IMG/VR virus record: IMGVR_UViG_3300037067_022543 | DNA from: a virus | Length of the DNA: 64,000 nucleotides | Reading direction: 5' to 3' (one strand) | Shown: piece by piece, positions 13,163 through 63,306 of the stretch | Numbering within the stretch: position 1 is the first letter of the stretch | Layout of the letters: every line of letters begins with the position of its first letter | The notes under the pieces: model-generated | What the model was told of the DNA's origin: nothing | Database searches by the model: none | What the model saw: only the letters and a program-made list of their open reading frames with translations | Translations under genes and position numbers: made by a program

Positions 13163-13299
13163 TATTTATCCTTTAAAAATTTCTTTACTTTTTTATACAA
13201 CCTGCTATAAATTATACAAATTTAAATTAATTGTCAATAAATAAAAGATTATTAATTAAAAGTAAAGTATAATACTGATAAACAACAGGAGTATATGTT

Positions 13300-13602
13300 A
13301 TGGATAAAAACAAACACAAAGCTCTTATTGATGAATTCGTTGAAACCTGTCCTTGTAAGGATGAATATTGCTCTTTAAGGGAACTTATAATGCATCTTTT
13401 CCAAGATCCAAGAACTCTTGTACAAGCAAAATGTTTGGAAAAGTTTAAATATGAGCGTTCAAAAGAACTTGGTAAAGATATAGGAAGTGCAGCAGTAGCA
13501 GAATGGATAGATCTAGGTTTTGCAAAGAAATTTTCTGATTGTTATAGTGAAGATAAAACTATTAATCAAATTTATAAAGAAATAAAAAATAGCAAGGTTT
13601 GA
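13300..13602 (+). CDS. hypothetical protein (100 aa)
   Basis: Plus-strand ORF with SD AGGAG 7 nt before the ATG and TATAAT at 13268-13273. Confidence 0.5.
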   Translation: MDKNKHKALIDEFVETCPCKDEYCSLRELIMHLFQDPRTLVQAKCLEKFKYERSKELGKDIGSAAVAEWIDLGFAKKFSDCYSEDKTINQIYKEIKNSKV

Positions 13603-13614
13603 AATTATTATATA

Positions 13615-14061
13615 TTAATCCTTATGTTTTCCATATAACTGTCTATAACACTTAAAATACTTTATGGCATCTTTAACCCCGTTTAATATAGTAGCATCAT
13701 ATAGACAACCCTGAATCCATCCTGGGACATCCTGTATAGTTATATCATCAAAATAACAAACAATGGGTTTATTGTAAATAGCAGCAAAAGTTATTTCGCT
13801 TAATGTTCCTGCTCCTTTAAGAACTGCAGAATCTATTTTTACAAGAAAATGCTCGCAACGAATCAAGTTGTTAATGTCTCTAATAACAATATTATTAATT
13901 ACTTTTTGTTTATACAAAAAAGAACATTTTTTAGGAACCTTTATCTTGTCTGGAATAATGACATCATAATATTGCAAAAGAGATTCCTTAACTTCATTCC
14001 TCCAATTGAAAGGATCTTTTGATTTTTCTATTGCTCCTGACAAATATATACTTGGTTTCAT
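13615..14061 (-). CDS. nucleoside 2-deoxyribosyltransferase-like protein
   Basis: IYLSGAIE at the N-terminus and DSAVLKGAGTLSEITFAAIYNKPIV, matching the NDT/Rcl-type Rossmann motifs. Confidence 0.55.
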   Translation of the reverse strand: MKPSIYLSGAIEKSKDPFNWRNEVKESLLQYYDVIIPDKIKVPKKCSFLYKQKVINNIVIRDINNLIRCEHFLVKIDSAVLKGAGTLSEITFAAIYNKPIVCYFDDITIQDVPGWIQGCLYDATILNGVKDAIKYFKCYRQLYGKHKD

Positions 14062-15233
14062 AATTTACTTTCAATTTTTCCGCCACTAGTAATCTCTATA
14101 AATTCACATTTTTCCTGAAATTCTTTTAAGTTTTTAGCCCCAACATAAGAAAATGATGATTGCAAGCCATGTTTAATATGTTTTAAAATATGTTTAACAT
14201 GCCCCCTAAAAGGAGCCATTTTTGCAACTCCTTCTACAAATTCATTTGCATTTCCATTTGAAACTTTATTTTCTCCGCTAGCAGAACCAGCATAAACTTT
14301 ATAAAACTCCCCTCTTTCTCCTGTAAAAACATTTCCTGGAGTTTCTGTTGATCCGGACAACATGGAACCGAGCATAACTGCATGAGAATATTTTAAGCTC
14401 TTTGCAATATCTCCTATTGATGACATGCCTCCATCTGCAATTATCTTTATGTGTTTAATGCCTTGTCTTATAAACTCTTCATTAATTGATTCCAAAGCAT
14501 AAAGTTGAGGAACACCAACCCCCGTATTTTTCCTCGTTAAGCAGGCCGAACCAGGACCGACGCCGCACTTAATACAATCTGCTCCCCATTCTGCAATATC
14601 GTAAGCACCTTCTGGAGTTGAAACATTACCTGCTATAATATATATATCTTTTAATCCTTTTTCTTTTATCCATTTTAATATATTTTTCATTACTAAAGAA
14701 TGGCCATGGGCAATATCTATGCAAAATATTTTTGCTCCAGCTTCGTATAAACTGTCAAACCTTTTTTTATCTTCATCTTGAACTCCTATTGAAACTCCAA
14801 TTTCATGGTCTTTATTACAAATACTTTTAATATTAGGATGTATATTAAAAGTACTACTATTAAAACTACTACAAGATTCTGAATATTTATCTTCATCTTT
14901 TAAAATAACAGTTGAGTTTCCTAAACTAATAGTATTACTTATAAGCCCTTCATTAACAGAAAAATGGTTTTTAACTTCTAAAAAATCTTCTACAGCTTGT
15001 TCAATACTGCAAAATCTATGTAAAATTCCCATACCGCCATTTTCAATCATTGCTATTGACATTTTAACGCCGCAAATAGTCTTCATATTTGCTGCTATAA
15101 TTGGCAAATTTATCTTAAAAAATCCAAAATCACTAGATAAATCAACACTTCTTCTAGACTCTATTTCAGAATATTTGGGGACAATTAGTACGTCACTAAA
15201 TGTATATGCTTCTTTATTTATTTTTTTATCCAT
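14058..15233 (-). CDS. IMP dehydrogenase / GMP reductase family protein (no CBS insert)
   Basis: CIDIAHGHS and the catalytic loop GVGPGSACLTR of the IMPDH/GMPR TIM barrel. Confidence 0.8.
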   Translation of the reverse strand: MDKKINKEAYTFSDVLIVPKYSEIESRRSVDLSSDFGFFKINLPIIAANMKTICGVKMSIAMIENGGMGILHRFCSIEQAVEDFLEVKNHFSVNEGLISNTISLGNSTVILKDEDKYSESCSSFNSSTFNIHPNIKSICNKDHEIGVSIGVQDEDKKRFDSLYEAGAKIFCIDIAHGHSLVMKNILKWIKEKGLKDIYIIAGNVSTPEGAYDIAEWGADCIKCGVGPGSACLTRKNTGVGVPQLYALESINEEFIRQGIKHIKIIADGGMSSIGDIAKSLKYSHAVMLGSMLSGSTETPGNVFTGERGEFYKVYAGSASGENKVSNGNANEFVEGVAKMAPFRGHVKHILKHIKHGLQSSFSYVGAKNLKEFQEKCEFIEITSGGKIESKL

Positions 15234-27325: not shown

Positions 27326-27775
27326 CTACATATTTTTTCTGCAATAAAAAAACGCCACAATTCCTCCAATAACAAAACATATAAAAAATATTAAAAATGG
27401 AAGATTATCATTCTGTTTTTTAATTAACTTTGCGTTTTCAATTGTTGGGCCAATAGTAATATTATTATCTATATTAGTTTTTAAAATATGGGAATGTGCC
27501 GAATGATACAAAAATATTGGGACAACATTATAAAATTGTTTATACTGCGATATTCTGAAATTATAATACATAGGATTGTTTATAATTGGTTTTCTTACCA
27601 TCCTATATGGTTTTACCATTTTAGAAGGGTTTGGTCTATTAACATGTATAGAACGATTAATATGGGTTGAATGATTAATATGTACGGAATGACTAATATG
27701 TACCGGCCTAGCAAAACAAATAGTTCCCCAAATAAACATAAATATAATTAATGTCTGTGTATTTATTGTTTTCAT
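27326..27775 (-). CDS. secreted/membrane His-rich repeat protein
   Basis: Signal peptide, repeats VHISHSVHINHSTHINRSIHVNR, C-terminal TM helix. Confidence 0.5.
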   Translation of the reverse strand: MKTINTQTLIIFMFIWGTICFARPVHISHSVHINHSTHINRSIHVNRPNPSKMVKPYRMVRKPIINNPMYYNFRISQYKQFYNVVPIFLYHSAHSHILKTNIDNNITIGPTIENAKLIKKQNDNLPFLIFFICFVIGGIVAFFYCRKNM

Positions 27776-28875
27776 AAATATTTTTTATAAAAGTCTCCTC
27801 CTATTTTACCTATTGATCTAATAGCACTTGAAGAAATGTAATCGTATTCTCTACCACAAGGAATAAAAACAACCGAAATATTACCACCATATTTATCCTC
27901 AATAAATCTCAACTGATTAATCTCATAGTTGAAATCGTAACCATTTCTTAAGCCACGAATTAGTGTAACATTTGCATAGGCTTCTATTGATTTGATATAA
28001 TCTGACAAAAAACCAGAAAATGAGTCAACTTCATGAAAAGGAATTACAGATCTAATTTTATCTATATTATCATCTATATTGCCTTCTTTAAGGTTGTCTT
28101 TTTCTGGATTGCGACCAACAGCAATAATTACCTTATCAAAAAGCTTTTCTGCTTTTTCTAAAATATTACTATGCCCAATATGAAAAGGATTAAATGATCC
28201 AGCATAAATCCCAATATTTGGCACATAATTTTCTACATGTTTTATCAATAAAGAAATATTATGACGGTTTTTAAAGCACTTATCATGATTTTTCATTGAG
28301 TTTAAAAATTTAATTCTGCCTTCTTTATACTTATTATAATTATAAAATTGATATTCTTTTAAAATAAGATTATCATCTCTCAATAGTTCGTTAACATTAC
28401 CATAAATAAATGTCCATAAATCTGCCTCATTAAACCATTGAGATAATTTTGTTGTTCCTTCTTGATTTCCATACTGAGTTTCAAGAATCATTTTTTTAAT
28501 AATATTGGTATTAGATTTGTTGGCTTTCCCTGAAACAGAGCTTACAGCAACAAACCAATCTGATGAAAGTTCTTCATTATTGCTCACCCTATCTGAAGTT
28601 GGTCTTTTAGGATCATAAACCACATCATGGAAAAGAGCTACAAGTTGTAAAATTTCTCTTTCTCTGGAAGTATGATGAAATGAATCAATAAGATTAAACA
28701 AAAAACTTATGTGTTTAATATCGTGATAATACCTGTGTTTTTGTTCATAAGCATTAAGAGCATCATTAACAACTTCATTAATTCTTCCGCCAAAAAGATT
28801 ATTGGCAATTGAATTATGAAATAAAAGTTCTTCAATTGATTTTCTAATTGTTCTTTTGTCTAATAAACTTCCCAT
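27772..28875 (-). CDS. HD-domain protein fused to a phosphopantetheine adenylyltransferase (CoaD)-like nucleotidyltransferase
   Basis: N-terminal H...HD motifs (HDIKHISF, ALFHDVVYDP); C-terminal GIYAGSFNPFHIGH, LIRGLRNGYDFNYE and ISSSAIR, colinear with CoaD motifs. Confidence 0.7.
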   Translation of the reverse strand: MGSLLDKRTIRKSIEELLFHNSIANNLFGGRINEVVNDALNAYEQKHRYYHDIKHISFLFNLIDSFHHTSREREILQLVALFHDVVYDPKRPTSDRVSNNEELSSDWFVAVSSVSGKANKSNTNIIKKMILETQYGNQEGTTKLSQWFNEADLWTFIYGNVNELLRDDNLILKEYQFYNYNKYKEGRIKFLNSMKNHDKCFKNRHNISLLIKHVENYVPNIGIYAGSFNPFHIGHSNILEKAEKLFDKVIIAVGRNPEKDNLKEGNIDDNIDKIRSVIPFHEVDSFSGFLSDYIKSIEAYANVTLIRGLRNGYDFNYEINQLRFIEDKYGGNISVVFIPCGREYDYISSSAIRSIGKIGGDFYKKYL

Positions 28876-28901
28876 ATAATCTCCTCAAAACCATAGTCAT
28901 T

Positions 28902-29660
28902 TTAAATCCATTGTTCAATATAATTTCTGTCTTGTGTAAAAATTGGAATTGTGCGATCTTCAATAATATCTGTTCTGAAAACATCGTGATCGCTAATGTT
29001 TTTTTTAGCCTGTTTTTTATATAAGCAAATGCCGCGTTTCTTCCATATGTCTATATTATTCCAATTTATGCCTTTTTCTTTAAAAAGTTTTTCCTGAACT
29101 TGATCGTTATTTAATCCAGACATTTCCTTATGAGAAAAGTTTGCTTGTCCAAGTCCCTGAATACTATTTCTGGTACAATCATTTTGTCTCCAAATAAAAT
29201 AGTTGCAAACTTCTTCTTTAGGCAATACAAAGGCTCTGGAATCAAATAGTCCACAATCACTAATTTCTGGTGATTTTAAATTTAGAAATATAAAACATTT
29301 ATTAAAGCATATAGTAGCAATGGATGCAGATACACTAACAATTTTTTGAAGATTCTTTTCAAACCAAGCTTGCGTGTAAATATTTTCGTAATCTGTTGCC
29401 AAAATGCTGATTTCGTCAGATTGAATATAAGCTAACTTTGAACCTTGAATTTCTTCAAGCAAACCCCTGCCTGTATCAACCATAGCCATTGCAAAATCTT
29501 CATCGAAAGGCTTTTGAAATCCACTCCTTTGTGTAAAACTATGAAACGCCTTTCCATCAACTCTAATAATTAAAGGCATTCTACGAGTAAGATAATGAAG
29601 ATTAACTTCCTCGTACTGCTTCATACGATTTCCTAAAGAATCTGTTTCTATTGTTTTCAT
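28902..29660 (-). CDS. Thg1-like protein (tRNA-His guanylyltransferase / 3'-5' polymerase family)
   Basis: LIIRVDGKAFHSF, IQSDEISIL and FDSRAFVLP match Thg1/TLP catalytic motifs. Confidence 0.8.
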   Translation of the reverse strand: MKTIETDSLGNRMKQYEEVNLHYLTRRMPLIIRVDGKAFHSFTQRSGFQKPFDEDFAMAMVDTGRGLLEEIQGSKLAYIQSDEISILATDYENIYTQAWFEKNLQKIVSVSASIATICFNKCFIFLNLKSPEISDCGLFDSRAFVLPKEEVCNYFIWRQNDCTRNSIQGLGQANFSHKEMSGLNNDQVQEKLFKEKGINWNNIDIWKKRGICLYKKQAKKNISDHDVFRTDIIEDRTIPIFTQDRNYIEQWI

Positions 29661-29668
29661 TATTTTTC

Positions 29669-30514
29669 CTAATTATTTATAACAAAAATTTCTTCATTTT
29701 CATCAAATTTGCCATCATCCCACCAACGAACATCTGGAAAACACCAATTCAATTTCATTTCGTCATATATCATTTTGTTAGTTTCTGTGTTCTGAATATA
29801 TAACCTTATAGGCTTTATTTTCATAATGTCAACATATCTCGTCCTCAAATGTATAAAAGTATTCCAACTATGAACACTAATTCCAATGCCATCAATGTAG
29901 CCGTCAACCATCTTGACAAAGTTTTTAGTTAGAAATATTCCATTCGTTTGAAGATAAATTGGAGTATCCTTTGCAGCTTTCCGTCTCAAACAGCAAAGTA
30001 TAGCAACTAATTTAGGATAAAGCAAAGGCTCTCCACCAGAAACAATAATAGTTCTATATTTTTTTAAGTCAACTTCCTTCCCATCAAGATTAAAAATTTT
30101 TCCATTAAAATCTTGAAGTGGAATCCACTTTTTACTATATTCTTCCAACTTATTAATGCAATACTCGCACTTTAGATTGCAAGCCAAAGTAACCTTAATT
30201 CGGCATTTTGTTTTTTTAACAAAATTAAATTTGTTTTCTGTTTCCTTTTTCCGACCAGTATATAATTCCCAACAAATTGGACAACACTCATCTTTCGTAT
30301 GAAACTTACCTTGACTCCCGCTCAAATGATAATCCTTGCCAATTTTACCGCATAATGTTTTGCTATGTACTAACAAAATTGGTTCTATTGGTGAAATAGG
30401 AATATGCACCCATTTATCGTCAGAATAACAAAGTTCCATATATGGCATTATTTTTCTCCCATCAATCATAACATAAATCATAATTATTTTATGCACCAAT
30501 ATTGTATCCCACAT
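29669..30514 (-). CDS. radical SAM domain protein
   Basis: CNLKCEYC (CxxxCxxC) and SGGEPLL. Confidence 0.7.
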   Translation of the reverse strand: MWDTILVHKIIMIYVMIDGRKIMPYMELCYSDDKWVHIPISPIEPILLVHSKTLCGKIGKDYHLSGSQGKFHTKDECCPICWELYTGRKKETENKFNFVKKTKCRIKVTLACNLKCEYCINKLEEYSKKWIPLQDFNGKIFNLDGKEVDLKKYRTIIVSGGEPLLYPKLVAILCCLRRKAAKDTPIYLQTNGIFLTKNFVKMVDGYIDGIGISVHSWNTFIHLRTRYVDIMKIKPIRLYIQNTETNKMIYDEMKLNWCFPDVRWWDDGKFDENEEIFVINN

Positions 30515-34101: not shown

Positions 34102-35052
34102 TTAAAGTTGAAAATTATTGTCTAATTGAGAAGATTTATACCAGTTGAAAGAAGAAAACAATGATTTTAACGGTTCGGTCTCTTGTGGATTTGGTTTGTG
34201 AAGATAATGTCTAACTTTTCCAACATATGCTGTTAATTTTTCAAGATATCTTTCTGGAAGTTTAGACGGATCAAAATCTGGTTCTTTTTTTAACTCTTCA
34301 ATTAAAAATTCTGCTATTTGTCTATCTTTTTTATTCCAATCTACCAATTCCCATTTTAATTTTCTAGGTTGTTTTCGTAATGTCCATGGAGCATATTTTT
34401 TTCTATATCTAGAAATATATGCTGGATCAACATCTTTTTCTTCTGCAATATCTGTTGTTCTTCTAATCCCCCATGCAATTTGTGGACCTTCAGTTGTCCA
34501 GTCTGTTTCCTTCTCATAACGCTTAATAGTATCATTAGCCCAAAACGCCCTCATAGCGTGAACATAATGTATATTTCTATCGGTTTCTATTGAAATTTCC
34601 TTATCGGATTTTACTTTCCATTCCACTTTTGCCCAGTCAACTTTAGCTATTGTATCTGGAGCACATCTCCTCCTCATGCGAGAAACACTAGTGGGATGAA
34701 GTCCTGTTTCTTGAACAATTTGCTTTGTTGATTTGTTCCAATCAATATCGGAACATTTTAAATATTCTTTTATTGTATCTAAAGCAAAACGTCTTCTCAT
34801 TTTTCCAACTTGGTTTTCTCCCTTCCCAATTTCTTGAGATATAACTTTGTTAGACTTGCTCCAGTCTATTTTTGACCAATCAAAATACTTAGTTTTTGTT
34901 TCAGGAGCACATATTACTCTTAAATGATAAATATAACTCATACTTAGTCCAGTTTCTTGCGAAATTTCAGCAGTGGATTTGCTCCAATCTATATCTGAAC
35001 AATCATATTTTGGTTTGCTGTATGTAGTTTTATATAATGTATACCAATTCAT
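34102..35052 (-). CDS. tandem HTH-like repeat protein (MNWYTLYK..., paralog of 31917..32783)
   Basis: Same repeat unit (IDWSKSNKVISQEIG...). Confidence 0.55.
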   Translation of the reverse strand: MNWYTLYKTTYSKPKYDCSDIDWSKSTAEISQETGLSMSYIYHLRVICAPETKTKYFDWSKIDWSKSNKVISQEIGKGENQVGKMRRRFALDTIKEYLKCSDIDWNKSTKQIVQETGLHPTSVSRMRRRCAPDTIAKVDWAKVEWKVKSDKEISIETDRNIHYVHAMRAFWANDTIKRYEKETDWTTEGPQIAWGIRRTTDIAEEKDVDPAYISRYRKKYAPWTLRKQPRKLKWELVDWNKKDRQIAEFLIEELKKEPDFDPSKLPERYLEKLTAYVGKVRHYLHKPNPQETEPLKSLFSSFNWYKSSQLDNNFQL

Positions 35053-35094
35053 ATATTGATATTACAAAAAAATGAGTTGATAATCCTTTAAAAA

Positions 35095-35171
35095 TGGTGA
35101 TCTCGGAGGAATTCGAATCCCCAATTTCTTCCACGTCAAGGAAGCACATTAACCAATTATGTTACGAGACC
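35095..35171 (-). tRNA. tRNA-Val (anticodon GAC), CCA encoded
   Basis: Manual fold: acceptor GGTCTCG/CGAGATC, anticodon arm CTTCC-TTGACGT-GGAAG, T-arm GGGGATTCGAATTCCTC. Confidence 0.65.
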
Positions 35172-36214
35172 AAACTGGTGCTCCTGGCAGGAATTAAACC
35201 CACTTCTACGGGATGAGAACCAGTCGTTTTATTCGGTAAACTATAGGAGCCAAAATTCTTAATCCTATCTAAAAAACTGTCCAATTTGTTTTCTGGATAT
35301 AAATCTGACGGTATTATTTCTATAAATTTTAAATTGTTGTCTTTTACTATTTTGCGTTTGAGTTCTACTACTTTATCATATTCTTCCACCTGCCCTATTA
35401 AACCGAAATATTCTACCAATATATTATAATATGGTAAATAAAAATCACAATCCATATTGCTATTGGGATATTTTTTATTTCTTTCGTGATTTATTTTATT
35501 TATAAAAAACCAATCGTCTACTATTTTTTCAGATATGCTGTCTGCCATATGATTGTCTTGACATTTCAATCTAGTTTTTTGAAATTTACTTTTGTTTGGT
35601 TTTAATCCGCAAAAACTAACGGCTTTATTCCATGTTCCAAAAAATCTTATGGTAGCAGACAATAATCTTATTAAACAATCTCTTTTTTGAGGAGTTCTAT
35701 TAATTTTTTGAGATAATTGTATTATTTTATTAATTACTTCGTCTTTGGTATATGGAGAAAATCCAAACTGATATATTTTTCCGCATTTTGCAGAACAACA
35801 CTTGATTCTTTTTCTCGATGGATGGAATTTTTTTCCACAAATAACGCAGTTCATTTCTTCAAGCATTATTTTATTTTGTGTTTTAAGATATTTTCTAATT
35901 GAATTTCTAGTTTTTTCTGATATTTCTTTTCTTTTTTCATCACTAAAAATTCTATTTTTATTATTTACTACTGCTGCACAAGAATTGCAACAATAAAATT
36001 TCTTTGTTTTACTTCTTTTATAATCACAATTTCCAACCACAATATCTTTTCCACAGTTATAACATTTTAGATTTTTAGATTTTGTTTTAAATTGTATTCT
36101 GCATTCTTTGCTACAAAAAAACTTCCATTTTTGTTTATTCGACCAATTATAATTCCTAGCTGGCATACCAAAATGATGGTGGCAGAAAGAACACTCGACA
36201 TCAATATCTACCAT
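35162..36214 (-). CDS. N-terminal zinc-ribbon repeats + C-terminal DUF559/Vsr-like endonuclease-fold protein
   Basis: Multiple CxxC pairs; DCDFYLPYYNILVEYFG matches the DUF559 core. The ORF as called reads through tRNA-like 35176..35251, so the true 3' end is uncertain. Confidence 0.5.
   Translation of the reverse strand: MVDIDVECSFCHHHFGMPARNYNWSNKQKWKFFCSKECRIQFKTKSKNLKCYNCGKDIVVGNCDYKRSKTKKFYCCNSCAAVVNNKNRIFSDEKRKEISEKTRNSIRKYLKTQNKIMLEEMNCVICGKKFHPSRKRIKCCSAKCGKIYQFGFSPYTKDEVINKIIQLSQKINRTPQKRDCLIRLLSATIRFFGTWNKAVSFCGLKPNKSKFQKTRLKCQDNHMADSISEKIVDDWFFINKINHERNKKYPNSNMDCDFYLPYYNILVEYFGLIGQVEEYDKVVELKRKIVKDNNLKFIEIIPSDLYPENKLDSFLDRIKNFGSYSLPNKTTGSHPVEVGLIPARSTSLVS
35176..35251 (-). tRNA. 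tRNA-like element (possible Glu, anticodon CTC) with acceptor and anticodon-stem mismatches and a non-canonical T-loop
   Basis: Manual fold GCTCCTA...CAGGAGC A CCA; T-loop TTTAATT lacks C56. Confidence 0.3.
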
Positions 36215-36312
36215 AAGAATAACTCCTTTTATATAATTATTCTTTAATATGTCGGCAATCTCCTACTTGAACCTTCAATTATTTGTATTATTTTTTAGGA
36301 CGGTTCAAAAAA

Positions 36313-36390
36313 TGGTGTCGCCATCGGGACTCGAACCCGAACTTTTCAGGATGAAAACCTGATGTGTTAGCCAGTTACACCATGGCGACA
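36313..36390 (-). tRNA. tRNA-Glu (anticodon TTC), CCA encoded
   Basis: Acceptor TGTCGCC/GGCGACA, anticodon arm TCAGG-TTTTCAT-CCTGA, T-arm GGGTTCGAGTCCC. Confidence 0.7.
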
Positions 36391-36395
36391 TAAGT

Positions 36396-36487
36396 TGGTC
36401 AGAGGGGTGGGATTTGAACCCACGATTACCTTGCGGTTTTCCTCCTGCGCCCAAGGCAGGCGTTCTACCAAGCTGAACTACCCTCTG
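36396..36487 (-). tRNA. tRNA-Pro-like (anticodon TGG, G37) with a 20-nt variable region containing a GNRA-capped hairpin (ACC-GCAA-GGT)
   Basis: Perfect acceptor CAGAGGG/CCCTCTG, Pro-type D-loop AGCTTGGTA, anticodon arm CCTGC-CTTGGGC-GCAGG, T-arm GTGGGTTCAAATCCCAC; variable region AGGAAAACCGCAAGGTAATC. Confidence 0.55.
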
Positions 36488-36495
36488 TACAAAAT

Positions 36496-36572
36496 TGGCA
36501 CTCCTGACAGGACTTGAACCTGCACAATCCCACGTTCGTAGCGTAGTGCCCTTCCAATTAGGCCACAGGAGC
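36496..36572 (-). tRNA. tRNA-Arg (anticodon ACG), CCA encoded
   Basis: Acceptor GCTCCTG/CAGGAGT, anticodon loop CTACGAA, T-arm GCAGGTTCAAGTCCTGT. Confidence 0.7.
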
Positions 36573-36606
36573 ATTATACATTAAATTTTCAAATATCAAT
36601 AAAAAA

Positions 36607-36686
36607 TGGTGGGCATGGTGGGATTTGAACCCACGACCTTCTGTGTATCAGACAGACGCTGCTAAAACCAGCTGAGCTACATGCCC
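36607..36686 (-). tRNA. tRNA-Ile (anticodon GAT), CCA encoded
   Basis: Acceptor GGGCATG/CATGCCC, anticodon arm TCTGT-CTGATAC-ACAGA, T-arm GTGGGTTCAAATCCCAC. Confidence 0.7.
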
Positions 36687-36729
36687 ATAATTATGCATTA
36701 TTAAGTTTTCAAATAACAAAACTAAAAAT

Positions 36730-36804
36730 GGTCCGGACCATCCAGAATCGAACTGGAGCCTTCAAGTTCACAGCATGACGGGCTACCACTACCCCATAGT
36801 CGGC
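36730..36804 (-). tRNA. tRNA-His-like (anticodon GTG) with genomically encoded G-1; one C.C mismatch in the acceptor stem
   Basis: Anticodon arm TCATG-CTGTGAA-CTTGA, T-arm TCCAGTTCGATTCTGGA, G immediately 5' of acceptor CCGACTA; the 3' side is TGGTCCG-G-ACCA. Confidence 0.45.
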
Positions 36805-36813
36805 ATCAAAAAG

Positions 36814-36900
36814 TCGGGAAGGTCGGATTTGAACCGACAATGCATTATTTCAGCTCCTGCTTCCAAAGCAGGTCGAGTACCAGTTATCTTCTACTTCCCG
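36814..36900 (-). tRNA. degenerate tRNA-like element (anticodon TGG, A37; irregular D-arm; 17-nt variable region), no CCA
   Basis: Acceptor CGGGAAG/CTTCCCG and T-arm GTCGGTTCAAATCCGAC are intact; the anticodon stem CCTGC/GCAGG is identical to that of tRNA-Pro-like 36396..36487. Confidence 0.35.
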
Positions 36901-36937
36901 TTTTATTCTTATTTTTCAAAGATCACTCATCAAAAAG

Positions 36938-37011
36938 TCGAGCAGGACAGCTTCTCTCCAGCGACCTTCACATCACAAACGTGCCGTTCTACTGAACTGA
37001 ACTACTGCTCG
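36938..37011 (-). tRNA. degenerate tRNA-like element (pseudo-tRNA; anticodon TGT region; T-arm destroyed)
   Basis: Acceptor CGAGCAG/CTGCTCG and D-stem GTTC/GAAC are present; T-loop replaced by AGAGAAG; shares the 3' trailer ACTTTTTGATG with 36814..36900. Confidence 0.3.
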
Positions 37012-37050
37012 TTAAATTCTTATATTTTCCACTCTTCCTTCCGTTAACCC

Positions 37051-37096
37051 CCTACAATCTCCTACAATCTCCTACAATCTCCTACAATCTCCTACA
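37051..37096. repeat. 10-bp direct tandem repeat CCTACAATCT x4 plus a partial copy
   Basis: Read directly from the sequence, immediately next to the degenerate tRNA-like elements. Confidence 0.85.
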
Positions 37097-37100
37097 CGCA

Positions 37101-37142
37101 AAAAGCCACCTTATATGGGTTTCCCCTTACAAGGTGGCTTTT
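37101..37142. terminator. bidirectional intrinsic terminator-like hairpin (AAAAGCCACCTT ... AAGGTGGCTTTT)
   Basis: 12-bp perfect stem with an 18-nt loop, flanked by an A-tract on one side and a T-tract on the other. Confidence 0.55.
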
Positions 37143-37432
37143 AGAAGGCTATGGGCTATTCCAGACCCCTTCCATGCCACCTTGTGATGGGTGGTTCTTC
37201 ATGGCGAATAGGTTCTGGAATAATTAATTTCATTTTATTTTTTCTTTCAGTTCTTTATTTATACAACAAATATAAAAAATATCCTTCTTTTATTACATTT
37301 TTTTTATCACTTATTATTCATAACGTCTTATACTTTAAATTCAGGCATTTTATCAAAACAACCAACATATCCCCCTTAAAATATCTAATAGTGTTCCCGT
37401 TTTTTTCTTTTCTATTAAACTGTTACGCTTTA

Positions 37433-37460
37433 CTTATACCATAAAATATTTTATTGTCAA
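37433..37460 (-). promoter_or_regulatory. sigma70-like promoter (TTGACA-N16-TATAAG) directed toward the tRNA cluster
   Basis: Minus strand reads TTGACAATAAAATATTTTATGGTATAAG. Downstream lie a 16-codon ORF with SD AAGGGGGA, then the hairpin, the tandem repeat and the tRNAs. Confidence 0.4.
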
Positions 37461-37497
37461 CATTTATTTTAAAAAAAATAACATCATAAAAACATTT

Positions 37498-37857
37498 TTA
37501 AATTATGCCAGATTTATGCATAATTTCCATCATCATCCCCCAAAAATTGCCCATGCAATGTTCATATGTTTCTTTGTCTAATAACTTAAGATCAACAATA
37601 GACACATCTAATAATCCGTGACGGCAAACCACATCGTCCCAGAAAAATTCAGTTTTCCATATAATGTATTTAACTTTTTCTAGACGTTTATCTGTCAAAC
37701 CATTTGGACGATAACTTTTGGGTAAAGATACAAAGTGTTTCCATACTTCATTTTTCTTTTCGTCATTTATCATCATAATTATTCTTATTATTAAATATCC
37801 TACTAATTCTTCAATCATTTTGTATCCAATATAATAAATTATTATTTTTTGCAACAA
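37498..37857 (-). CDS. hypothetical protein (119 aa)
   Basis: Minus-strand ORF. Confidence 0.45.
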   Translation of the reverse strand: MLQKIIIYYIGYKMIEELVGYLIIRIIMMINDEKKNEVWKHFVSLPKSYRPNGLTDKRLEKVKYIIWKTEFFWDDVVCRHGLLDVSIVDLKLLDKETYEHCMGNFWGMMMEIMHKSGII

Positions 37858-38927: not shown

Positions 38928-38955
38928 TTTATACATTAATTTCCTGTATTGTCAA
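38928..38955 (-). promoter_or_regulatory. sigma70-like promoter with A/T-rich upstream element (AAAATAATCCTTGACA)
   Basis: Minus strand reads TTGACAATACAGGAAATTAATGTATAAA; the shared upstream motif also occurs at 51853, 61738 and 63329. Confidence 0.55.
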
Positions 38956-40905: not shown

Positions 40906-41463
40906 CTATTCAAATTTTTTAATATCTTTGAAAGTGTATGGTTCTAAATAATCAGGATTATCAATTAAGATTTGCTTGCCATAATTGTTTTTAGGATTAA
41001 TAACTAACGGAGATTTAATAATTATAACTCCTTCTGAAAAGACTCCTTTAGCTATATTTCCCTTATCTACTTTAACAATAGTAAGAAAAACAAGATCATC
41101 TGAAGATGATGCATTTAATGCCATTTTATCTTCTTCGCTTGGAGTTGGCTTATAATCCTTAAAAATAAAAAAGGGATCAATACACATAAAGCTAAGTTTT
41201 GTTTCTCCACAAAAGTTCATTATAATAAAAGGGTTACTTTTATCATTAAAAACAAAAGCAAATTCCTTATTGTCTTTAAAACCAGGTAAACCGTCTGGAA
41301 AGTAAAACATCTTTTCTGAAAATCCCCTATTAGAAATAAGATTTTTGTAAGGAATTTTCTTCTTCTGATTTTTACCAAGATATCCCAACATATTTAACTG
41401 AACTAAACTCATTTTAATTCTCCTTGTATTAAAGAAACTTTTATTTGAACCATTTATAACCAA
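40906..41463 (-). CDS. fliW: FliW homolog (flagellar assembly factor / CsrA antagonist family, DUF180)
   Basis: FYFPDGLPGFKDNKEFAFVF, FMCIDPFFIFKDYKPTPSEEDKMALN and IIKSPLVINPKNNYGKQILID are colinear with the FliW motifs (F.P.GLPGF, ID.PF.IF.DY.P...EED, AP.IINL.N..GKQ). The true start may be the internal MSLVQLNML. Confidence 0.7.
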   Translation of the reverse strand: MVINGSNKSFFNTRRIKMSLVQLNMLGYLGKNQKKKIPYKNLISNRGFSEKMFYFPDGLPGFKDNKEFAFVFNDKSNPFIIMNFCGETKLSFMCIDPFFIFKDYKPTPSEEDKMALNASSSDDLVFLTIVKVDKGNIAKGVFSEGVIIIKSPLVINPKNNYGKQILIDNPDYLEPYTFKDIKKFE

Positions 41464-42585: not shown

Positions 42586-43146
42586 TTAATTATATTCAAC
42601 CATCCAATCATCGGCTAACATATCTTTAATGTCACAAAAAAGTTCATGATCTTCTATATAATTTTCACTTTCCCTTACCAACAGCAGTTCGCCGTCTTCA
42701 GATCTGGAAACAGCAATCATATCCATGCCTTCTCCTCTTGTACGCCAACCTTTTCTACAAGCTCTTTTACCATTAAGAATTTCACGCAATGGAAACTGAC
42801 GACAAACAACCCAACCTTCTAGTTCACAATGCGAATCACGTGAATCACTTAGACCTAATTTATTAATTTCCCAAGGATGTCTTATTCCATTTAAAAAATC
42901 ATCATCTATCCAAATTTCAACAGAACTAATTTGTTCTATATCTGATTTATATTTCCTACCATCAAAATATTCAACTCCTATAACTACTGTTTCTTTTCCT
43001 GTTAAATTGTCATGAACTTTTTCACCAACAAAGAAAGGAAGATTTATGGTTTTAGATGGTGGTAGATTAATTTTAGTTTCTATAACAATATTATCCCCAA
43101 CATTATAATTTATAGTTTTATTCATAGCAATGATATTATTTCCCAT
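42586..43146 (-). CDS. hypothetical protein (186 aa)
   Basis: Minus-strand ORF. Confidence 0.45.
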   Translation of the reverse strand: MGNNIIAMNKTINYNVGDNIVIETKINLPPSKTINLPFFVGEKVHDNLTGKETVVIGVEYFDGRKYKSDIEQISSVEIWIDDDFLNGIRHPWEINKLGLSDSRDSHCELEGWVVCRQFPLREILNGKRACRKGWRTRGEGMDMIAVSRSEDGELLLVRESENYIEDHELFCDIKDMLADDWMVEYN

Positions 43147-46030: not shown

Positions 46031-46075
46031 AAATTTAAATTATACAAATTTTATGAGGTTGTCAATACTTTTAAC

Positions 46076-58060: not shown

Positions 58061-59983
58061 TTATTTCTTTTTATCATCAACCATTTCAAAATCAGCATCA
58101 ATTACATCACCTTGTGCATCTTTTTTGTCTTTAATGTTATCAGATGTTTGTTCAGATGTTTTTTCTTTAGAATTCTTTGCTTTTTCATATAATTCAGAAG
58201 AAACAGAATGCATAGATTCATTAAGTGATTCCATTTTTTCCTTAATTGTCTTAACATCTTCAGATTTAATGGCAGATTTCAATTCTTCTATTTTCTTTTC
58301 AACATCTATTTTTTTATCAGAAGAAATCTTTTCAGAATTATCTTTCAGCATTTTCTCTGTTTGATAAACAACATTTTCTGCTATGTTCTTTGTTTCGATT
58401 TTTTCCCTTGAATCCTTATCTTCTTGAGAATGTTCTTCTGCATCTTTAACCATTTCTTTAATTTCTTTTTCAGTCAATCCACTAGATGCTGTTATGGTTA
58501 TCTTTTGTTCCTTATTTGTTCCCAAATCTTTTGCAGAAACATGTAAAATACCATTAGCATCTATATCAAATGCCACTTCTATTTGAGGTGTTCCACGCAT
58601 AGCAGGAGGAATACCATCAAGATGAAAACGCCCTAATGATTTATTACCTTTTGCCATTTGTCTTTCGCCTTGCAAAACATGTATTTCTACGGCAGGTTGG
58701 TTGTCAGCTGCAGTACTAAATATTTCTGACTTGCGTGTTGGTATGGTGGTATTTCTCTCAATCAATTTTGTATAAACTCCACCCAATGTTTCTATCCCTA
58801 AAGAGAGGGGAGTAACATCTAACAGCAACACATCTTTTACATCTCCCTTAATAATACCTCCTTGTATAGAAGCCCCAACTGCAACTACTTCATCTGGATT
58901 AACGCCTTTATGAGGTTCTTTTCCAAATGTCGCTTGAACAACATCTTGAACTTTAGGCATTCTGGTCATTCCTCCAACCATAACAACTTCATTAATATCT
59001 TTATAATCCAAACTAGAATCTTTCACGCATTTTTTGACTGGTGAAAGAGTTCTGCTAATTAAATCATCAACTAGTTGTTCTAGTTTAGATCTGGACAAGT
59101 TAATATTTAAATGTTTTGGTCCAGAAGCATCAGCAGTAATAAAAGGAAGATTAATATCAGTTTGTTGAGATGAAGATAACTCACATTTAGCTTTTTCAGC
59201 AGCTTCCTTCAATCTTTGCAAAGCCATACTATCTTTTGACAAATCAATGCCGTTATCTTTTTTGAATTCAGAAGTCAACCATTGGATAATAAGTTGATCA
59301 AAATCATCTCCACCAAGATGGGTGTCACCATTAGTAGATTTAACTTCAAAAACTCCATCTCCTATATCCAAAATAGAAATATCAAAAGTTCCACCACCAA
59401 GATCATAAACAGCAATCTTTTCATCCTTCTTTTTGTCCATACCATAGGCTAAAGAAGCAGCAGTTGGCTCATTAATTATTCTTAACACTTCAAGACCAGC
59501 AATCTTTCCAGCATCCTTTGTGGCTTGCCTCTGACTATCATTGAAATATGCTGGCACAGTTATAATTGCTTGTGTAACACTTTCCCCCAAATAAGATTCT
59601 GCATCTGTTTTCAACTTTTGCAAAATCATAGATGATATTTCAGGAGGAGAATAAGTCTTGCCATCTACTTCAACATGGGCATCACCATTTTTTGCTTTTA
59701 CTATTTTATATGGTACTAATGATATTTCGTGAGCTACTTCATCATATTTTCTTCCCATAAACCTTTTAATTGAATAAACAGTGTTTTTGGGGTTAGTCAC
59801 TGATTGCCTTTTAGCTGATTGCCCAACAAGCCTTTCTCCGCTTTTAGTGAATGCTACTATTGAAGGAGTTGTTCTACTGCCTTCTGCATTTGGAATAACA
59901 ACAGGTTGCCCGCCTTCCATAACAGCCATACAGCTATTTGTAGTTCCCAAGTCTATACCTATAACCTTATTCGATTTAGCCAT
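58061..59983 (-). CDS. dnaK: Hsp70 chaperone DnaK (bacterial type)
   Basis: [33 protein letters not shown]; full-length 640 aa; TATAAT and AAGGAA upstream. Confidence 0.9.
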
Positions 59984-60024: not shown

Positions 60025-60435
60025 TTAATCTATTTTTATTAATGAAACATATGGTTCTTTTTTTGCTTTTGGAATAATAATTTCCAGTACTCCTTCTTTA
60101 TATGAAGCTTTAACATTTTCAATAACTATATCTTCTGGAATTAAAATTGAACGACTAAATGAACCATAAAACCTTTCTTGAATAGGAATATTAACCAGTT
60201 GTTCATTTTCAATTTCATTCTTTTTTTCTCCACTAATAGACAATATGTTATTGTCTTCTATACTAATTTTTATTTCTTCCTTTTTCATGCCAGGAATGCT
60301 AAACTTAAATAAAAATAAATCTTCCCTTTCAATAGCATCCATTTCTGGAAATGTTTTTTTACATTCCATATCACCAAATATACTTCTAGCAATACCGATA
60401 CCGTTAACAGATCTACTACAACTTGAAGAATTCAT
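60025..60435 (-). CDS. Hsp20 / alpha-crystallin family small heat-shock protein
   Basis: Alpha-crystallin domain (SISGEK...ERFYGSFSRSILIPEDI...EGVLEIIIPK); SD AAAGGAGG. Confidence 0.8.
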   Translation of the reverse strand: MNSSSCSRSVNGIGIARSIFGDMECKKTFPEMDAIEREDLFLFKFSIPGMKKEEIKISIEDNNILSISGEKKNEIENEQLVNIPIQERFYGSFSRSILIPEDIVIENVKASYKEGVLEIIIPKAKKEPYVSLIKID

Positions 60436-60622
60436 AAATAACCTCCTTTAATTAATTGTTTGAAAAATATATAAGCATCTATCATGCCAAATAAATACTA
60501 TTATTTATAACTAAATGAATATCAATAAAATAAAATAAAATAGTGTAAATATTAAAAATTAAATACGAGTAAATATGGCACACTTTATATGGGGCAATGA
60601 TAAATAATGGCACAGTTAAAAA

Positions 60623-60700
60623 TGGTAGGTGCGGAGGGATTTGAACCCCCAACCCCCGAGATATAAGCTCGGTGCTCTAACCAGTTGAAGCTACGCACCC
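60623..60700 (-). tRNA. tRNA-Ile (anticodon TAT, AUA-reading), CCA encoded
   Basis: Acceptor GGGTGCG/CGCACCT, anticodon arm CCGAG-CTTATAT-CTCGG, T-arm GGGGGTTCAAATCCCTC. Confidence 0.6.
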
Positions 60701-60712
60701 ATATTTCTCAAA

Positions 60713-60787
60713 TGGCTGCCCGACCAGGATTTGAACCTAGACTAACACGTTCAGAGCGTGTCATGCTGCCAATTACACTATCGGGCA
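60713..60787 (-). tRNA. tRNA-Gln (anticodon CTG), CCA encoded
   Basis: U1:A72 acceptor TGCCCGA/TCGGGCA, anticodon arm ACACG-CTCTGAA-CGTGT. Confidence 0.65.
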
Positions 60788-60793
60788 ATAAAG

Positions 60794-60865
60794 TTGTCCC
60801 GCCTGGAATTGAACCAGGTCTAGAACGTTCAAAGCGTCCTGTGCAGACCTTTACACCACGGGACA
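60794..60865 (-). tRNA. tRNA-Gln (anticodon TTG), no CCA
   Basis: Acceptor TGTCCCG/CGGGACA, anticodon arm GGACG-CTTTGAA-CGTTC, T-arm CCTGGTTCAATTCCAGG. Confidence 0.65.
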
Positions 60866-60870
60866 ATAAA

Positions 60871-61239
60871 TCATATTTTAACATTTAACTCTTCAATATC
60901 AAAATTATGCCTAAACGATTGTTTTTTTAATTTTTCTTCTTCATCTTTTAGTTTTTTAACTTTTTCTTCTGCAAATTCTTTTCTCATAAAATAGCCATGT
61001 TCCATATAATCAATCCATCTTCCTCTACTATCTTCACAGTTTTCTTTAACCCTATATATCTTGAAAGATCCACCTTGAATAAAATGATCTACTAATTCAT
61101 TTATTGAAGCACAGTTGAGACAACCTTCATTATGGCCGTTATAGCTAGTATTTAAGGTCTCCCTCAATACATCTCTTATTGTAACTGGCTTATCTATTAT
61201 AATACCTATTTCTTTTTTACTCTCAACTATTGTTTCCAT
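60871..61239 (-). CDS. hypothetical protein (122 aa)
   Basis: Minus-strand ORF directly downstream of tRNA-Asp. Confidence 0.45.
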   Translation of the reverse strand: METIVESKKEIGIIIDKPVTIRDVLRETLNTSYNGHNEGCLNCASINELVDHFIQGGSFKIYRVKENCEDSRGRWIDYMEHGYFMRKEFAEEKVKKLKDEEEKLKKQSFRHNFDIEELNVKI

Positions 61240-61274
61240 ATTATTTCTCCTTTTTAATTATTATTTTATAAAGT

Positions 61275-61348
61275 TGGCGGGGCCGATGGGAGTTGAACCC
61301 ACGCAGGAAAATAGACAGTTTCCCATTCTACCGTTAAATCACGGCCCC
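61275..61348 (-). tRNA. tRNA-Asp (anticodon GTC), CCA encoded
   Basis: Acceptor GGGGCCG/CGGCCCC, anticodon arm GGAAA-CTGTCTA-TTTCC. Confidence 0.7.
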
Positions 61349-61421
61349 ATTTTTCAAAGAGCATTTGCAATTTTAGTTTAAATAGTCTCAACCACGTAAA
61401 GGTATTGCATATATGAGACCG

Positions 61422-61504: not shown

Positions 61505-61532
61505 ATTAAATTTTTCAAAGAACGCCACACGC

Positions 61533-61568: not shown

Positions 61569-61595
61569 AGACTTAACAACAAGAAAGCAGTTAAG

Positions 61596-61620
61596 CCAAA
61601 GCCTTCACGCTTTGGTTTAT
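61596..61620. terminator. second hairpin (CCAAAGC-cttcac-GCTTTGG + TTTAT)
   Basis: 7-bp perfect stem. Confidence 0.45.
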
Positions 61621-61715
61621 ATCCTGATTATCTTGTATTATATTTTTCATTTTATTACTTTTAATCTAACTATCACATACAATTGAATTTATACTATTAT
61701 TCTTTTGATTCTCTA

Positions 61716-62998: not shown

Positions 62999-63306
62999 TC
63001 TGTGAATATAGAATGGCTAACCATCAACCCAAATGATGTTCTGGTTATTTCGCCAATTATCTGTTTTTTTAATTTTCATAATTATTGTATTCTTATATTT
63101 TTTTATTTTTACCTACAAAAAAATGATGTTGCTGTGACCATTTTTAAATTATCATACAACTTTTTAATTAAAACATTAATCCTATTATTATGCCAATTAT
63201 AAACAATAATCTTTTCTCAAAAAATAGCAAGGGCGTATAAATAATATTTATTTTTCCAACTTTTATAACTGTTCTATTATTCACACAATTGTCCTTTTGA
63301 ATTCAA

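Follow-up and report, generated by a model that had tools for sequence, protein, structure and literature searches.

A phage tRNA operon that is probably controlled by a leader-peptide attenuator sensing its own tRNAs

Positions 36,730 to 37,142 of IMG/VR virus record IMGVR_UViG_3300037067_022543, analysed here as one stretch of 64,000 nucleotides (the window), hold a tRNA-His gene, two odd tRNA-like sequences (tRNA-like #2 and #3), a 10-bp tandem repeat and a 12-bp-stem hairpin. Are these elements the scar of an integration event, the remains of an eroding tRNA array, or parts of a working unit? A first-pass annotation had proposed the first two. We find that the hairpin at 37101-37142 is the intrinsic terminator of a conserved leader module, which that annotation had not seen. 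Sequence comparison and folding models together indicate that the tRNA operon behind it is probably controlled by a ribosome-mediated leader-peptide transcription attenuator that senses the operon's own encoded tRNAs.

The window has a G+C content of ∼30% and nearly all of its genes on the minus strand; it seems to be a portion of a large phage. Rfam matches 15 tRNAs, all on the minus strand, and 13 of these are also called by ARAGORN. Every element described in the first-pass annotation could be found again. It had placed the odd elements downstream of five good tRNAs; they actually precede those tRNAs in transcription, and the region is the promoter-proximal 5′ end of a minus-strand phage tRNA operon. 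Transcription would pass, in turn, through the hairpin (37142..37101), the 10-bp repeat (37096..37051), tRNA-like #3 (37011..36938), tRNA-like #2 (36900..36814), tRNA-His, tRNA-Ile(GAU), tRNA-Arg(ACG), tRNA-Pro(UGG), tRNA-Glu(UUC), an HNH gene, a degenerate tRNA-Glu(CUC) and tRNA-Val. All five good tRNA genes encode CCA, and #2 and #3 do not. A short open reading frame (ORF), the W1 leader, lies upstream of the hairpin. The features of the module and the good tRNA genes that it precedes are:

37433..37460, minus strand: sigma-70-type promoter, TTGACA-N17-TATAAG, upstream of the W1 leader
37233..37156, minus strand: W1 leader ORF, 25 codons plus stop, MKLIIPEPIRHEEPPITRWHGRGLE
37205-37190, minus strand: leader segment 1, GCCAUGAAGAACCACC, pairing with segment 2
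37185-37172, minus strand: leader segment 2, ACAAGGUGGCAUGG, also forming an antiterminator with 37129-37138
37100..37142, minus strand: intrinsic terminator, a 12-bp hairpin plus U tract, −27.6 kcal/mol, then UUUUU (ViennaRNA)
36729..36803, minus strand: tRNA-His(GUG) (ARAGORN, 36733-36803; Rfam tRNA, 51.3 bits)
36607-36686, minus strand: tRNA-Ile(GAU), CCA encoded
36496-36572, minus strand: tRNA-Arg(ACG), CCA encoded
36396-36487, minus strand: tRNA-Pro(UGG), CCA encoded, with an extra variable-arm hairpin
36313-36389, minus strand: tRNA-Glu(UUC), CCA encoded

The first-pass annotation had described the 12-bp stem correctly. A simple terminator scanner missed the W1 terminator, a 34-nt stem-loop outside the scanner's stem and loop limits.

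The codons of the W1 leader correspond to the tRNAs behind the terminator. Each of core codons 4-16 (37186..37224, minus strand: ATT ATT CCA GAA CCT ATT CGC CAT GAA GAA CCA CCC ATC) is read by a tRNA encoded downstream, namely Ile(GAU), Pro(UGG), Glu(UUC), Arg(ACG) or His(GUG). Codons cognate to these tRNAs make up 18.3% of the codons in the long ORFs of the window, which gives p^13 = 2.6e-10. The run of 13 is the longest of its kind in the six frames of the 64 kb, in which no other run reaches 7; with ∼1.3e5 codon positions, we estimate that ∼3e-5 such 13-codon runs would be expected by chance. The Arg codon of the run, CGC, represents 3.7% of Arg codons, and tRNA-Arg(ACG) lies downstream.

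To compare this leader with its counterparts, we collected related contigs from JGI, ENA and Logan metagenomes by exact and homologous look-ups of neighbouring proteins and with a degenerate pattern based on the leader (loci L001-L020 and L112-L114). The W1 ortholog reads MRSIIPEPIRHEEPPITGWHGMGLG in L003/L012 and MRLVIPEPIRHEEPPIMRWHGRVLE in L007/L008/L009, and its length and frame are identical across the three lineages. All changes within the 13-codon core are synonymous (CCC/CCT, ATC/ATT and GAA/GAG), and the amino-acid changes fall in the flanking codons. The terminator is kept in L003, L008, L009 and L012 and begins 14-16 nt past the end of the ORF, and the same type of promoter precedes the leaders of L003, L007, L008 and L012. 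Leader and terminator together are 84-86% identical between the window and L003/L008, compared with 53-79% for the downstream tRNA genes and 71-80% for the HNH gene. In L003, the protein adjacent to the array is just 45% identical to that of the window, yet the DNA upstream of the array is nearly unchanged.

Two further modules, W2 and W3, are found in the window, the former with the same type of promoter:

61716-61743, minus strand: promoter, TTGACA-N17-TATAAA, before the W2 leader
61650..61591, minus strand: W2 leader, MKNIIQDNQDINQSVKALA, upstream of tRNA-Asn
61644..61612, minus strand: W2 regulatory run, 11 cognate codons
61567..61533, minus strand: W2 terminator (folding with ViennaRNA)
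61421-61504, minus strand: tRNA-Asn(GUU), served by W2 (ARAGORN/Rfam)
61275-61348, minus strand: tRNA-Asp(GUC), served by W2 (ARAGORN/Rfam)
60793-60865, minus strand: tRNA-Gln(UUG), served by W2 (ARAGORN/Rfam)
60713-60787, minus strand: tRNA-Gln(CUG), served by W2 (ARAGORN/Rfam)
60623-60700, minus strand: tRNA-Ile(UAU), served by W2 (ARAGORN/Rfam)
63079..63017, minus strand: W3 leader, MKIKKTDNWRNNQNIIWVDG, with two TGG codons
62981..62954, minus strand: W3 terminator, before tRNA-Trp
62851-62926, minus strand: tRNA-Trp(CCA), behind the W3 terminator

Codons 3-13 of W2 (AAT ATA ATA CAA GAT AAT CAG GAT ATA AAC CAA) are 11 cognate codons in a row where the background frequency is 20% (p^11 = 2e-8), again the longest such run in the window. 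There are no cross-matches between the W1 leader and the W2 tRNAs or the reverse. The correspondence extends to the choice among Ile codons: W1 uses only ATT and ATC before tRNA-Ile(GAU), and W2 only ATA (three times) before tRNA-Ile(UAU), which has a probability of 0.008 given the Ile usage of the phage. The codon match of W3 taken alone is weaker (P = 0.045).

With the relatives, the leader modules number 10: W1, W2 and W3 in the window, and L003, L008, L013a, L013b, L015, L112 and L114. In several of these other phages the leader differs along with the tRNAs downstream:

L013: leader MIFNIPEIHPSEPISK... (run NIPEIHPSEPI), followed by tRNAs for His, Glu, Ile and Pro
L112: leader ...HSPEEIIHPEP..., followed by tRNAs for His, Ile, Pro(CGG), Glu, Glu(CUC) and Pro(UGG)
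L015: leader ...IQIPEIHEEEPI..., followed by tRNA-His and, after an intervening gene, by tRNAs for Ile and Glu
L114: leader ...IHIPEIHEEEPI..., followed by tRNAs for His, Ile, Glu and Pro
L013, second module: leader ...SFIFT... (two Phe codons), followed by tRNA-Phe

The arrays of L013, L112, L015 and L114 contain no tRNA-Arg, and the runs of their leaders contain no CGN codon. In the distant relatives the terminators are unrelated and the leaders diverged, and the correspondence between codons and tRNAs is retained.

The second line of evidence is a set of alternative RNA pairings. The sequence ACAAGGUGGC (37185-37176), within the W1 ORF just past the regulatory run, is a perfect complement of the 5′ arm of the terminator, GCCACCUUGU (37138-37129), and can alternatively pair with the upstream ORF segment CCAUG...CCACC. 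The duplex of W1 with the terminator 5′ arm has a predicted energy of −22.8 kcal/mol, compared with −10.9 ± 2.4 kcal/mol in 1000 dinucleotide shuffles made of each leader ORF (P = 0.001). By the same test the predicted antiterminator duplex is significant in nine of the 10 modules (P of 0.001-0.034): W1, W2 and L008 at 0.001, L013b at 0.002, L003 at 0.005, L013a at 0.007, L112 at 0.008, L114 at 0.027 and L015 at 0.034. The complementary segment always lies at nucleotides ∼40-65 of the ORF, just 3′ of the regulatory run. Because the terminator sequences differ between modules, the maintained complement amounts to co-variation between independent instances. Terminators of −12 to −28 kcal/mol followed by 5-7 U are present in every module, at 16-49 nt from the first tRNA in the modules checked and, in W1, at 89 nt from tRNA-like #3.

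In full leaders the terminator always wins, and we therefore relied on truncated co-transcriptional folds as well as on duplex energies compared with shuffles. Transcripts were cut just before the 3′ arm of the terminator, and the regulatory codons were masked as they would be under a stalled ribosome. In these masked folds the terminator 5′ arm pairs with the leader-ORF segment in 8/8 modules folded. When no ribosome is imposed, the antiterminator segment is sequestered in L003, L013b and L015.

The simplest interpretation of these results is the following. A host-type promoter would give a short transcript that encodes the 25-residue leader, whose codons 4-16 match the tRNAs encoded past the terminator (Pro, His, Ile-AUU/AUC, Arg-CGC and Glu). 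When charged tRNAs are plentiful, the ribosome would reach the stop codon and cover ACAAGGUGGC, the hairpin at 37101-37142 would form, and RNA polymerase would halt before the tRNA genes. When any cognate tRNA is scarce, the ribosome would stall within the run, the freed segment would pair with GCCACCUUGU, and the tRNA genes would be transcribed. Since stalling or run-through would be decided by the operon's own tRNAs, the operon would be switched by the supply of its products. The ORFs, the correspondence between their codons and the tRNAs, the terminators, the alternative pairings and their conservation can be read directly from the DNA; from them we infer leader translation, ribosome stalling, the ensuing read-through and the physiological role. 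Full-text literature searches, with most subscription journals outside their coverage, turned up no account of tRNA genes regulated by leader-peptide attenuation. Polyproline/EF-P stalling was considered as the sensor and set aside, as the PP motif occurs in the W1 family only.

Could the same locus arise by ordinary turnover of a tRNA array? The hairpin would then end an upstream transcript, the small ORFs would be fortuitous, the tRNAs would be made by read-through or from their own promoters, and duplication and decay, perhaps promoted by the HNH enzyme, would account for the rest. tRNA-like #3, tRNA-His and tRNA-Glu(CUC) do look eroded in this genome, an HNH gene lies within the array, and promoter-like hexamers are found between some of the tRNA genes. 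Turnover leaves unexplained, however, why cognate runs of 13 and 11 codons are unique in the window, why Ile codons are split into ATT/ATC and ATA, why leader composition tracks tRNA content in other phages, why an antiterminator complement is present in nine of 10 modules, and why the leader is conserved more than the tRNA genes. As the whole account of the locus it is unlikely; erosion is an addition to the attenuator and not an alternative to it.

A conserved, highly structured RNA could also act without being translated as a leader: as a small RNA, as a riboswitch-like or T-box-like RNA that responds to a ligand, a protein or a tRNA, or as the message of a functional micropeptide, or else the conserved part could belong to an antisense ORF on the plus strand (37151-37444). 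In favour of such a reading, the ribosome-binding sites of the leaders are weak and the antisense frame is open in the W1 family. Yet no Rfam family matches, T-box and known leaders included; at E ≤ 1, the intervals 34800-37600 and 60400-63400 return tRNA only and no T-box or known leader family. Nor can a single micropeptide or ligand explain why leaders as unrelated as W1, W2, W3 and L013b are each written in codons for the tRNAs that follow them. The antisense frames are broken by stops or lack a start codon in other modules, and nearly all genes of the window are on the minus strand. We regard this group of explanations as very unlikely. We rejected the antisense 97-residue ORF itself (37151-37444, plus strand), since it lacks a consistent start codon and the frame does not stay open in other modules; the part of it that looks conserved is the promoter and leader read as their reverse complement. 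An alternative ORF within the W1 leader, MKNHPSQGGMEGVWNSP (37202..37149), is not conserved in relatives.

Several observations weigh against control by an attenuator. Translation of the leaders is, as noted, something we infer from sequence; their 5′ regions are A-rich with a weak or absent Shine-Dalgarno sequence, although 20/39 of the long ORFs in the window also lack one. Because the antisense frame of the W1-family leader is open throughout and has its wobble positions in common with the sense frame, synonymous changes alone do not fix the coding strand. W3 and L013b each rest on two cognate codons only, and the W3 antiterminator is weak (P = 0.22). Truncated transcripts of W1, W2, L008 and L013a form the antiterminator even without a ribosome. 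Full-length equilibrium folds, conversely, always give the terminator, even with a stalled ribosome, and the switch must therefore be kinetic. The modules were found in one poorly sampled clade only, and none was found in 80 Thg1-encoding IMG/VR loci or in more distant, GC-richer loci bearing HNH genes. Finally, the full promoter lies ∼190 nt from the W1 leader in the window (37262-37432). The corresponding spacing in relatives and in W2 is 45-66 nt, and a copy of the 3′ half of the promoter, lacking the −35 element, is found directly before the W1 leader (∼37290-37255), which suggests a second rearrangement upstream of the leader.

What, then, are the elements between the terminator and tRNA-His?

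37051..37096, minus strand: tandem repeat of GTAGGAGATT (CCTACAATCT on the plus strand), 4.6 copies, 100% identical, TRF score 92, the top score in the window
36938..37011, minus strand: tRNA-like #3 (Rfam, 32.2 bits; no ARAGORN call)
36928-36937, minus strand: second copy of the trailer, after tRNA-like #3
36814..36900, minus strand: tRNA-like #2 (ARAGORN tRNA-Pro(UGG), 36813-36900; Rfam, 29.5 bits at 36817-36898, threshold 29)
36804..36813, minus strand: spacer ("trailer") CTTTTTGATG, of which the last G (36804) is G-1 of tRNA-His

The repeat, counted as 4.5 copies in the first-pass annotation, has a counterpart in L003/L012, which carry GTGGGAGATTGTAGG in ∼1.5 copies; in these relatives the sequence from the terminator to the first tRNA is GCGTGTGGGAGATTGTAGG(A/C)GTTCTTTGA.... 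The window has a specific insertion of ∼160 nt, made up of three extra repeat units, a 39-nt spacer, tRNA-like #3 and the trailer, and rejoins its relatives at TCTTTGAAAAAT before #2. We thus read the repeat, on the basis of this alignment, as a lineage-specific expansion of a spacer motif that follows the terminator, and the repeat together with #3 would belong to recently inserted DNA that separates the terminator from the first tRNA gene. Two Logan contigs, L001 and L005, stop within the repeat, which a 10-nt period would lead one to expect at k = 31. Another motif, TTTTGCGTG, follows each of the three leader terminators of the window on the minus strand (37095-37103, 61528-61536 and 62949-62957); these are exactly the three matches in the window, where 0.3 are expected, and none occurs elsewhere in it. 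In W2 and in the relatives of W1, GTTCTTTGA(A/T)AAAT then precedes the first tRNA. The arrangement may represent a processing signal.

Both tRNA-like copies share the trailer, as first reported, and end in CG-A-CTTTTTGATG. The tRNA-Pro/tRNA-His spacer is identical in L008, reads CTTTTTAATG at the same position in L012 and reads TTTTAATG in L003, and we take the trailer, from these comparisons, to be the normal U-rich spacer after genes without an encoded CCA.

These data bear on site-specific integration into a tRNA gene. Two tRNA-like copies that end in the same 13 nt, CGACTTTTTGATG, a perfect tandem repeat adjoining them and an insertion of ∼160 nt relative to other genomes are what an attachment (att) scar could look like. 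However, L003, L008/L009 and L012 are collinear with the window and have the spacer once only, between Pro and His. The two trailer copies enclose ∼112 nt, equal to one spacer plus tRNA-like #2, and no mobile element. The hairpin is conserved as part of a recurring leader/terminator module. The first-pass annotation had advised searching for the repeat elsewhere and for an integrase: the repeat has no match in any public collection searched, IMG/VR included, and no integrase is present among the ∼40 window ORFs scanned. An integration scar is thus extremely improbable.

tRNA-like #2 was described as a degenerate copy, with an anticodon stem (CCUGC/GCAGG) equal to that of tRNA-Pro(UGG) at 36396-36487 and an irregular D arm. 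The stem and the D arm are as described, but conserved orthologs and compensatory changes contradict the degeneracy. Its acceptor and T arms are good, as is the anticodon arm; a regular D stem and an encoded CCA are both missing, and the variable arm is long. Orthologs with 82-83% identity occupy the same position in L008/L009 and L012. Among the three sequences, four anticodon- and T-stem pairs are changed on both sides and still paired, the 22-nt D region is 100% conserved and the long variable arm is common to all. Where the window has the anticodon UGG, these relatives have CGG; in L003 the position is taken by an ordinary 74-nt tRNA-Pro(CGG). Judged by this conservation, #2 is a conserved non-canonical tRNA-Pro and would be the conserved first gene of the operon, the shared trailer being an ordinary spacer of genes without an encoded CCA.

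Unlike #2, tRNA-like #3 is without a homolog among the relatives. Its acceptor is of the Pro type (C1-G72, A73), CCA is not encoded, its anticodon loop reads UUUGUGA, its T stem has 4/5 pairs, two of them G.U, its T loop (AGAGAAG) lacks UUC and its D loop lacks GG; its best fold is a rod (−28.2 kcal/mol). As the first-pass annotation had stated, #3 combines intact acceptor and D stems with a poor T arm, whereas the anticodon stem, which that annotation had called intact, contains one mismatch. Covariance scores are 29.5 bits for #2, just above the Rfam threshold of 29 and with no regular D stem, and 32.2 bits for #3, which ARAGORN does not call. We consider #3 probably a decaying duplicate, though relatives too have tRNAs with non-canonical T loops. 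Array duplication and erosion, which the annotation had offered as its other explanation, therefore holds for #3, with its ∼160-nt insertion, and for the mismatches in tRNA-His and tRNA-Glu(CUC), and does not hold for #2. Codon 17 of W1 (37185-37183) is ACA (Thr) in the window only, being ACT in L003 and ATG in L008, and the anticodon loop of #3, likewise confined to the window, reads UGU and would decode ACA. This match is probably a coincidence.

The tRNA-His gene is unusual in another way. As had been reported, it has an encoded G-1 (36804) and a C2.C71 mismatch. It has an additional U30.U40 mismatch, its fold is poor (z = +1.0), and its 3′ end, ..UGGUCCGG-A-CCA, is missing C73. The end thus reads ..CCGG-A-CCA, compared with C73-CCA in five relatives, and the window gene fails to form the bacterial-type G-1:C73 pair that is canonical in the other five. 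All six tRNA-His genes compared are preceded by an ATG whose G is G-1. A Thg1-like gene (28902-29660, minus strand; Pfam PF04446, E 2.5e-30; the C-terminal domain is matched weakly) was correctly noted as lying nearby. It belongs to a minus-strand cluster (27772-30514) of radical SAM, Thg1-like and cytidylyltransferase-like genes; L003 (3176-4261) and L012 (11972-13057) instead have a T4 Rnl1-type RNA ligase near the array. The window cluster and the RNA ligase of the relatives suggest tRNA repair functions.

The mismatched tRNA-His, and perhaps #2 and #3, could be substrates of the Thg1-like enzyme, either for repair or editing of the 5′ end or for G-1 placed opposite a non-C discriminator, an arrangement compatible with an attenuator. 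The gene lies 7 kb away. Only the window tRNA-His lacks C73 and has C2.C71, the five relatives having G-1:C73, and L003 combines a canonical tRNA-His with a syntenic interval that has no Thg1 gene. Such a correlation comes from two genomes only, though, and G-1 is already encoded. The U30.U40 mismatch and poor fold fit simple decay, and the acceptor stems of #2 and #3 are perfectly paired and need no 5′ editing. The 80 Thg1-encoding viral loci yielded three nearby tRNA-His genes; one has A73, as the idea would have it, and two have C73, which is no consistent pattern. Editing by the Thg1-like enzyme is accordingly improbable.

Unusual tRNA shapes are not limited to the head of the operon. Extra variable-arm insertions are present in several tRNAs in which the variable loop is normally short. 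In tRNA-Pro(UGG) (36396-36487) and tRNA-Asn(GUU) (61421-61504) the insertions are small hairpins capped by GNRA tetraloops, ACC-GCAA-GGU and CCC-GUAA-GGG respectively; the tRNA-Arg of L008 (2149-2240) has 92 nt with an AT-rich insertion, and L013 has cases at 1417-1501 and 2705-2792. The insertions are lineage-specific, with tRNA-Pro orthologs of normal length in L003 and L008. Relatives also have tRNAs with the non-canonical T loops AGCGUUA, GGCAGAU and UGCAAGU and with D loops without GG, among them L003 926-997 (Glu), L012 ∼9075-9150 (His) and 9354-9436 (Pro), some of them missed by ARAGORN. The D/T elbow contacts seem to be absent in these tRNAs, and the clade may tolerate or favour unusual tRNA shapes.

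A more speculative extension, which we hold to be possible and on balance doubtful, is that the modules are depletion sensors in a contest between phage and host over tRNAs and form a counter-defence circuit that is inducible and codon-specific. Depletion of tRNAs for His, Arg, Asn, Asp, Gln, Ile, Pro, Glu and Trp, by anticodon nucleases of the host or by host shut-off, would stall ribosomes in the matching leaders, and replacement tRNAs would be made. The odd shapes (GNRA-capped variable arms, missing D stems, odd T loops, and a tRNA-His without C73 together with a Thg1-like repair enzyme) would then be poor substrates for the nucleases.

The remaining genes of the arrays are an endonuclease-like gene and two tRNA genes behind tRNA-Glu(UUC):

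35162-36214, minus strand: HNH-repeat homing-endonuclease-like gene within the tRNA array
35179-35250, minus strand: degenerate tRNA-Glu(CUC), after the HNH gene, whose ORF reads into the tRNA
35095-35171, minus strand: tRNA-Val(GAC), after the HNH gene

Homologs of this HNH gene adjoin tRNA genes in all related contigs examined. A second endonuclease-like gene with HNH-like Cys/His motifs (seen by eye) and an HTH_7 domain lies by a tRNA array at 62092-62742 (minus strand). In L112, genes for IS605-family TnpB (OrfB) and Y1 transposase (6700-8413 and 13584-14753) adjoin the tRNA array, and inspection by eye suggests a similar element next to tRNA genes of an unrelated faecal phage contig, MT837385 (L115, ∼700-1100).

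Elsewhere the window encodes a UvrD helicase, FliW, a Tad2-like protein, Hsp70/DnaK, IMPDH and DNA methylases. The genes for Hsp70/DnaK, IMPDH/GMP reductase, a BNR (sialidase-like) protein, FliW and the Tad2-like (anti-Thoeris) protein are found at 58061-59983, 14058-15233, 10221-11249, 40906-41463 and 42586-43146, respectively. Promoters of the form TTGACA-N15-18-TATAA occur 10 times in the window, where 0.67 are expected, and nine of the 10 are on the minus strand; further such sites are found, for example, at 3106-3132, 13212-13237, 38929-38955 and 46040-46065. Many transcription units of the phage seem to depend on the RNA polymerase of the host.

The clade was detected only in metagenome contigs from JGI, ENA and Logan. 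No close relative was found in INPHARED, which gave short tRNA-level matches only, or in IMG/VR; the INPHARED match MT837385 is an unrelated phage. Neither the adjacent protein nor the W1, L015-type and W2 leader patterns retrieved anything from IMG/VR and GTDB genomes; the post-terminator motif gave seven matches there, all due to chance, and the three distant loci recovered by aligning HNH homologs contain no leader module.

If the attenuator model is correct, transcription of tRNA genes would be under direct feedback control by their products, codon by codon, which would explain how large phages dose their tRNA arrays rather than express them constitutively. The signature, a small ORF that spells the anticodons encoded downstream and is followed by a terminator, would find regulated tRNA genes in metagenomes and could predict which tRNAs limit translation during infection. 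The module would also be a compact, programmable part for sensing tRNA pools. The "degenerate" tRNA copies of this clade need rereading, as at least one is a conserved non-canonical tRNA.

How does the locus compare with known systems? It is like a tRNA-gene att site in having two copies of a tRNA 3′ end plus trailer, and unlike one in that no integrase was found among the ∼40 ORFs scanned, there is no inserted element and no empty site, and the trailer is the normal spacer of the relatives. Like Thg1/tRNA-His G-1 systems, it has a Thg1-family gene alongside a tRNA-His with a non-C discriminator, although here G-1 is encoded in the genome and the link is a candidate only.

Classical leader-peptide attenuators of enteric bacteria include trpL, hisL, thrL, ilvL/ivbL, leuL and pheL (PMC3082878), as well as the pheST leader. 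To our knowledge, all textbook examples control amino-acid supply or synthetases. The modules described here share with them a promoter, a short ORF with a run of regulatory codons, an intrinsic terminator and an antiterminator that uses the terminator 5′ arm, and they mix several amino acids in one leader, as do thr (Thr and Ile) and ilv (Ile, Leu and Val). They differ in that the downstream genes are tRNAs and not biosynthesis or synthetase genes, so that the molecules sensed would be the operon's own products; in that the match is at the level of codon and anticodon (ATT/ATC vs ATA; CGC); and in being phage-borne, with at least three modules in one genome. No similarity in sequence to known leaders was found, and no Rfam match.

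Like T-boxes (RF00230), the modules would sense the state of tRNA and choose between terminator and antiterminator before translation-related genes. A T-box, however, contacts the tRNA itself, using a single specifier codon together with the T-box bulge, and needs no ribosome, whereas the modules present 11-13 cognate codons within an ORF and do not match the T-box family. Among phage tRNA clusters, the T4 tRNA region with segB and the T5 tRNA region with HNH endonucleases also harbour homing endonucleases, and the present arrays resemble them as tRNA arrays of a large lytic-type phage, with an HNH-type gene between tRNAs, quick turnover and some genes without CCA. We know of no leader-peptide attenuator for tRNA clusters of the T4/T5 type, and in this respect the arrays described here differ, being gated by leader/terminator modules.

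A functional parallel is the trn L-array of Anabaena, a supernumerary tRNA array that is kept off and induced when translation is impaired (PMC8421152). It is induced within the cell's transcriptional response to translational stress, and the paper makes no mention of attenuation, leaders or terminators (PMC8421152). By comparison, the sensor that we propose for the phage arrays would act in cis and would be codon-specific.

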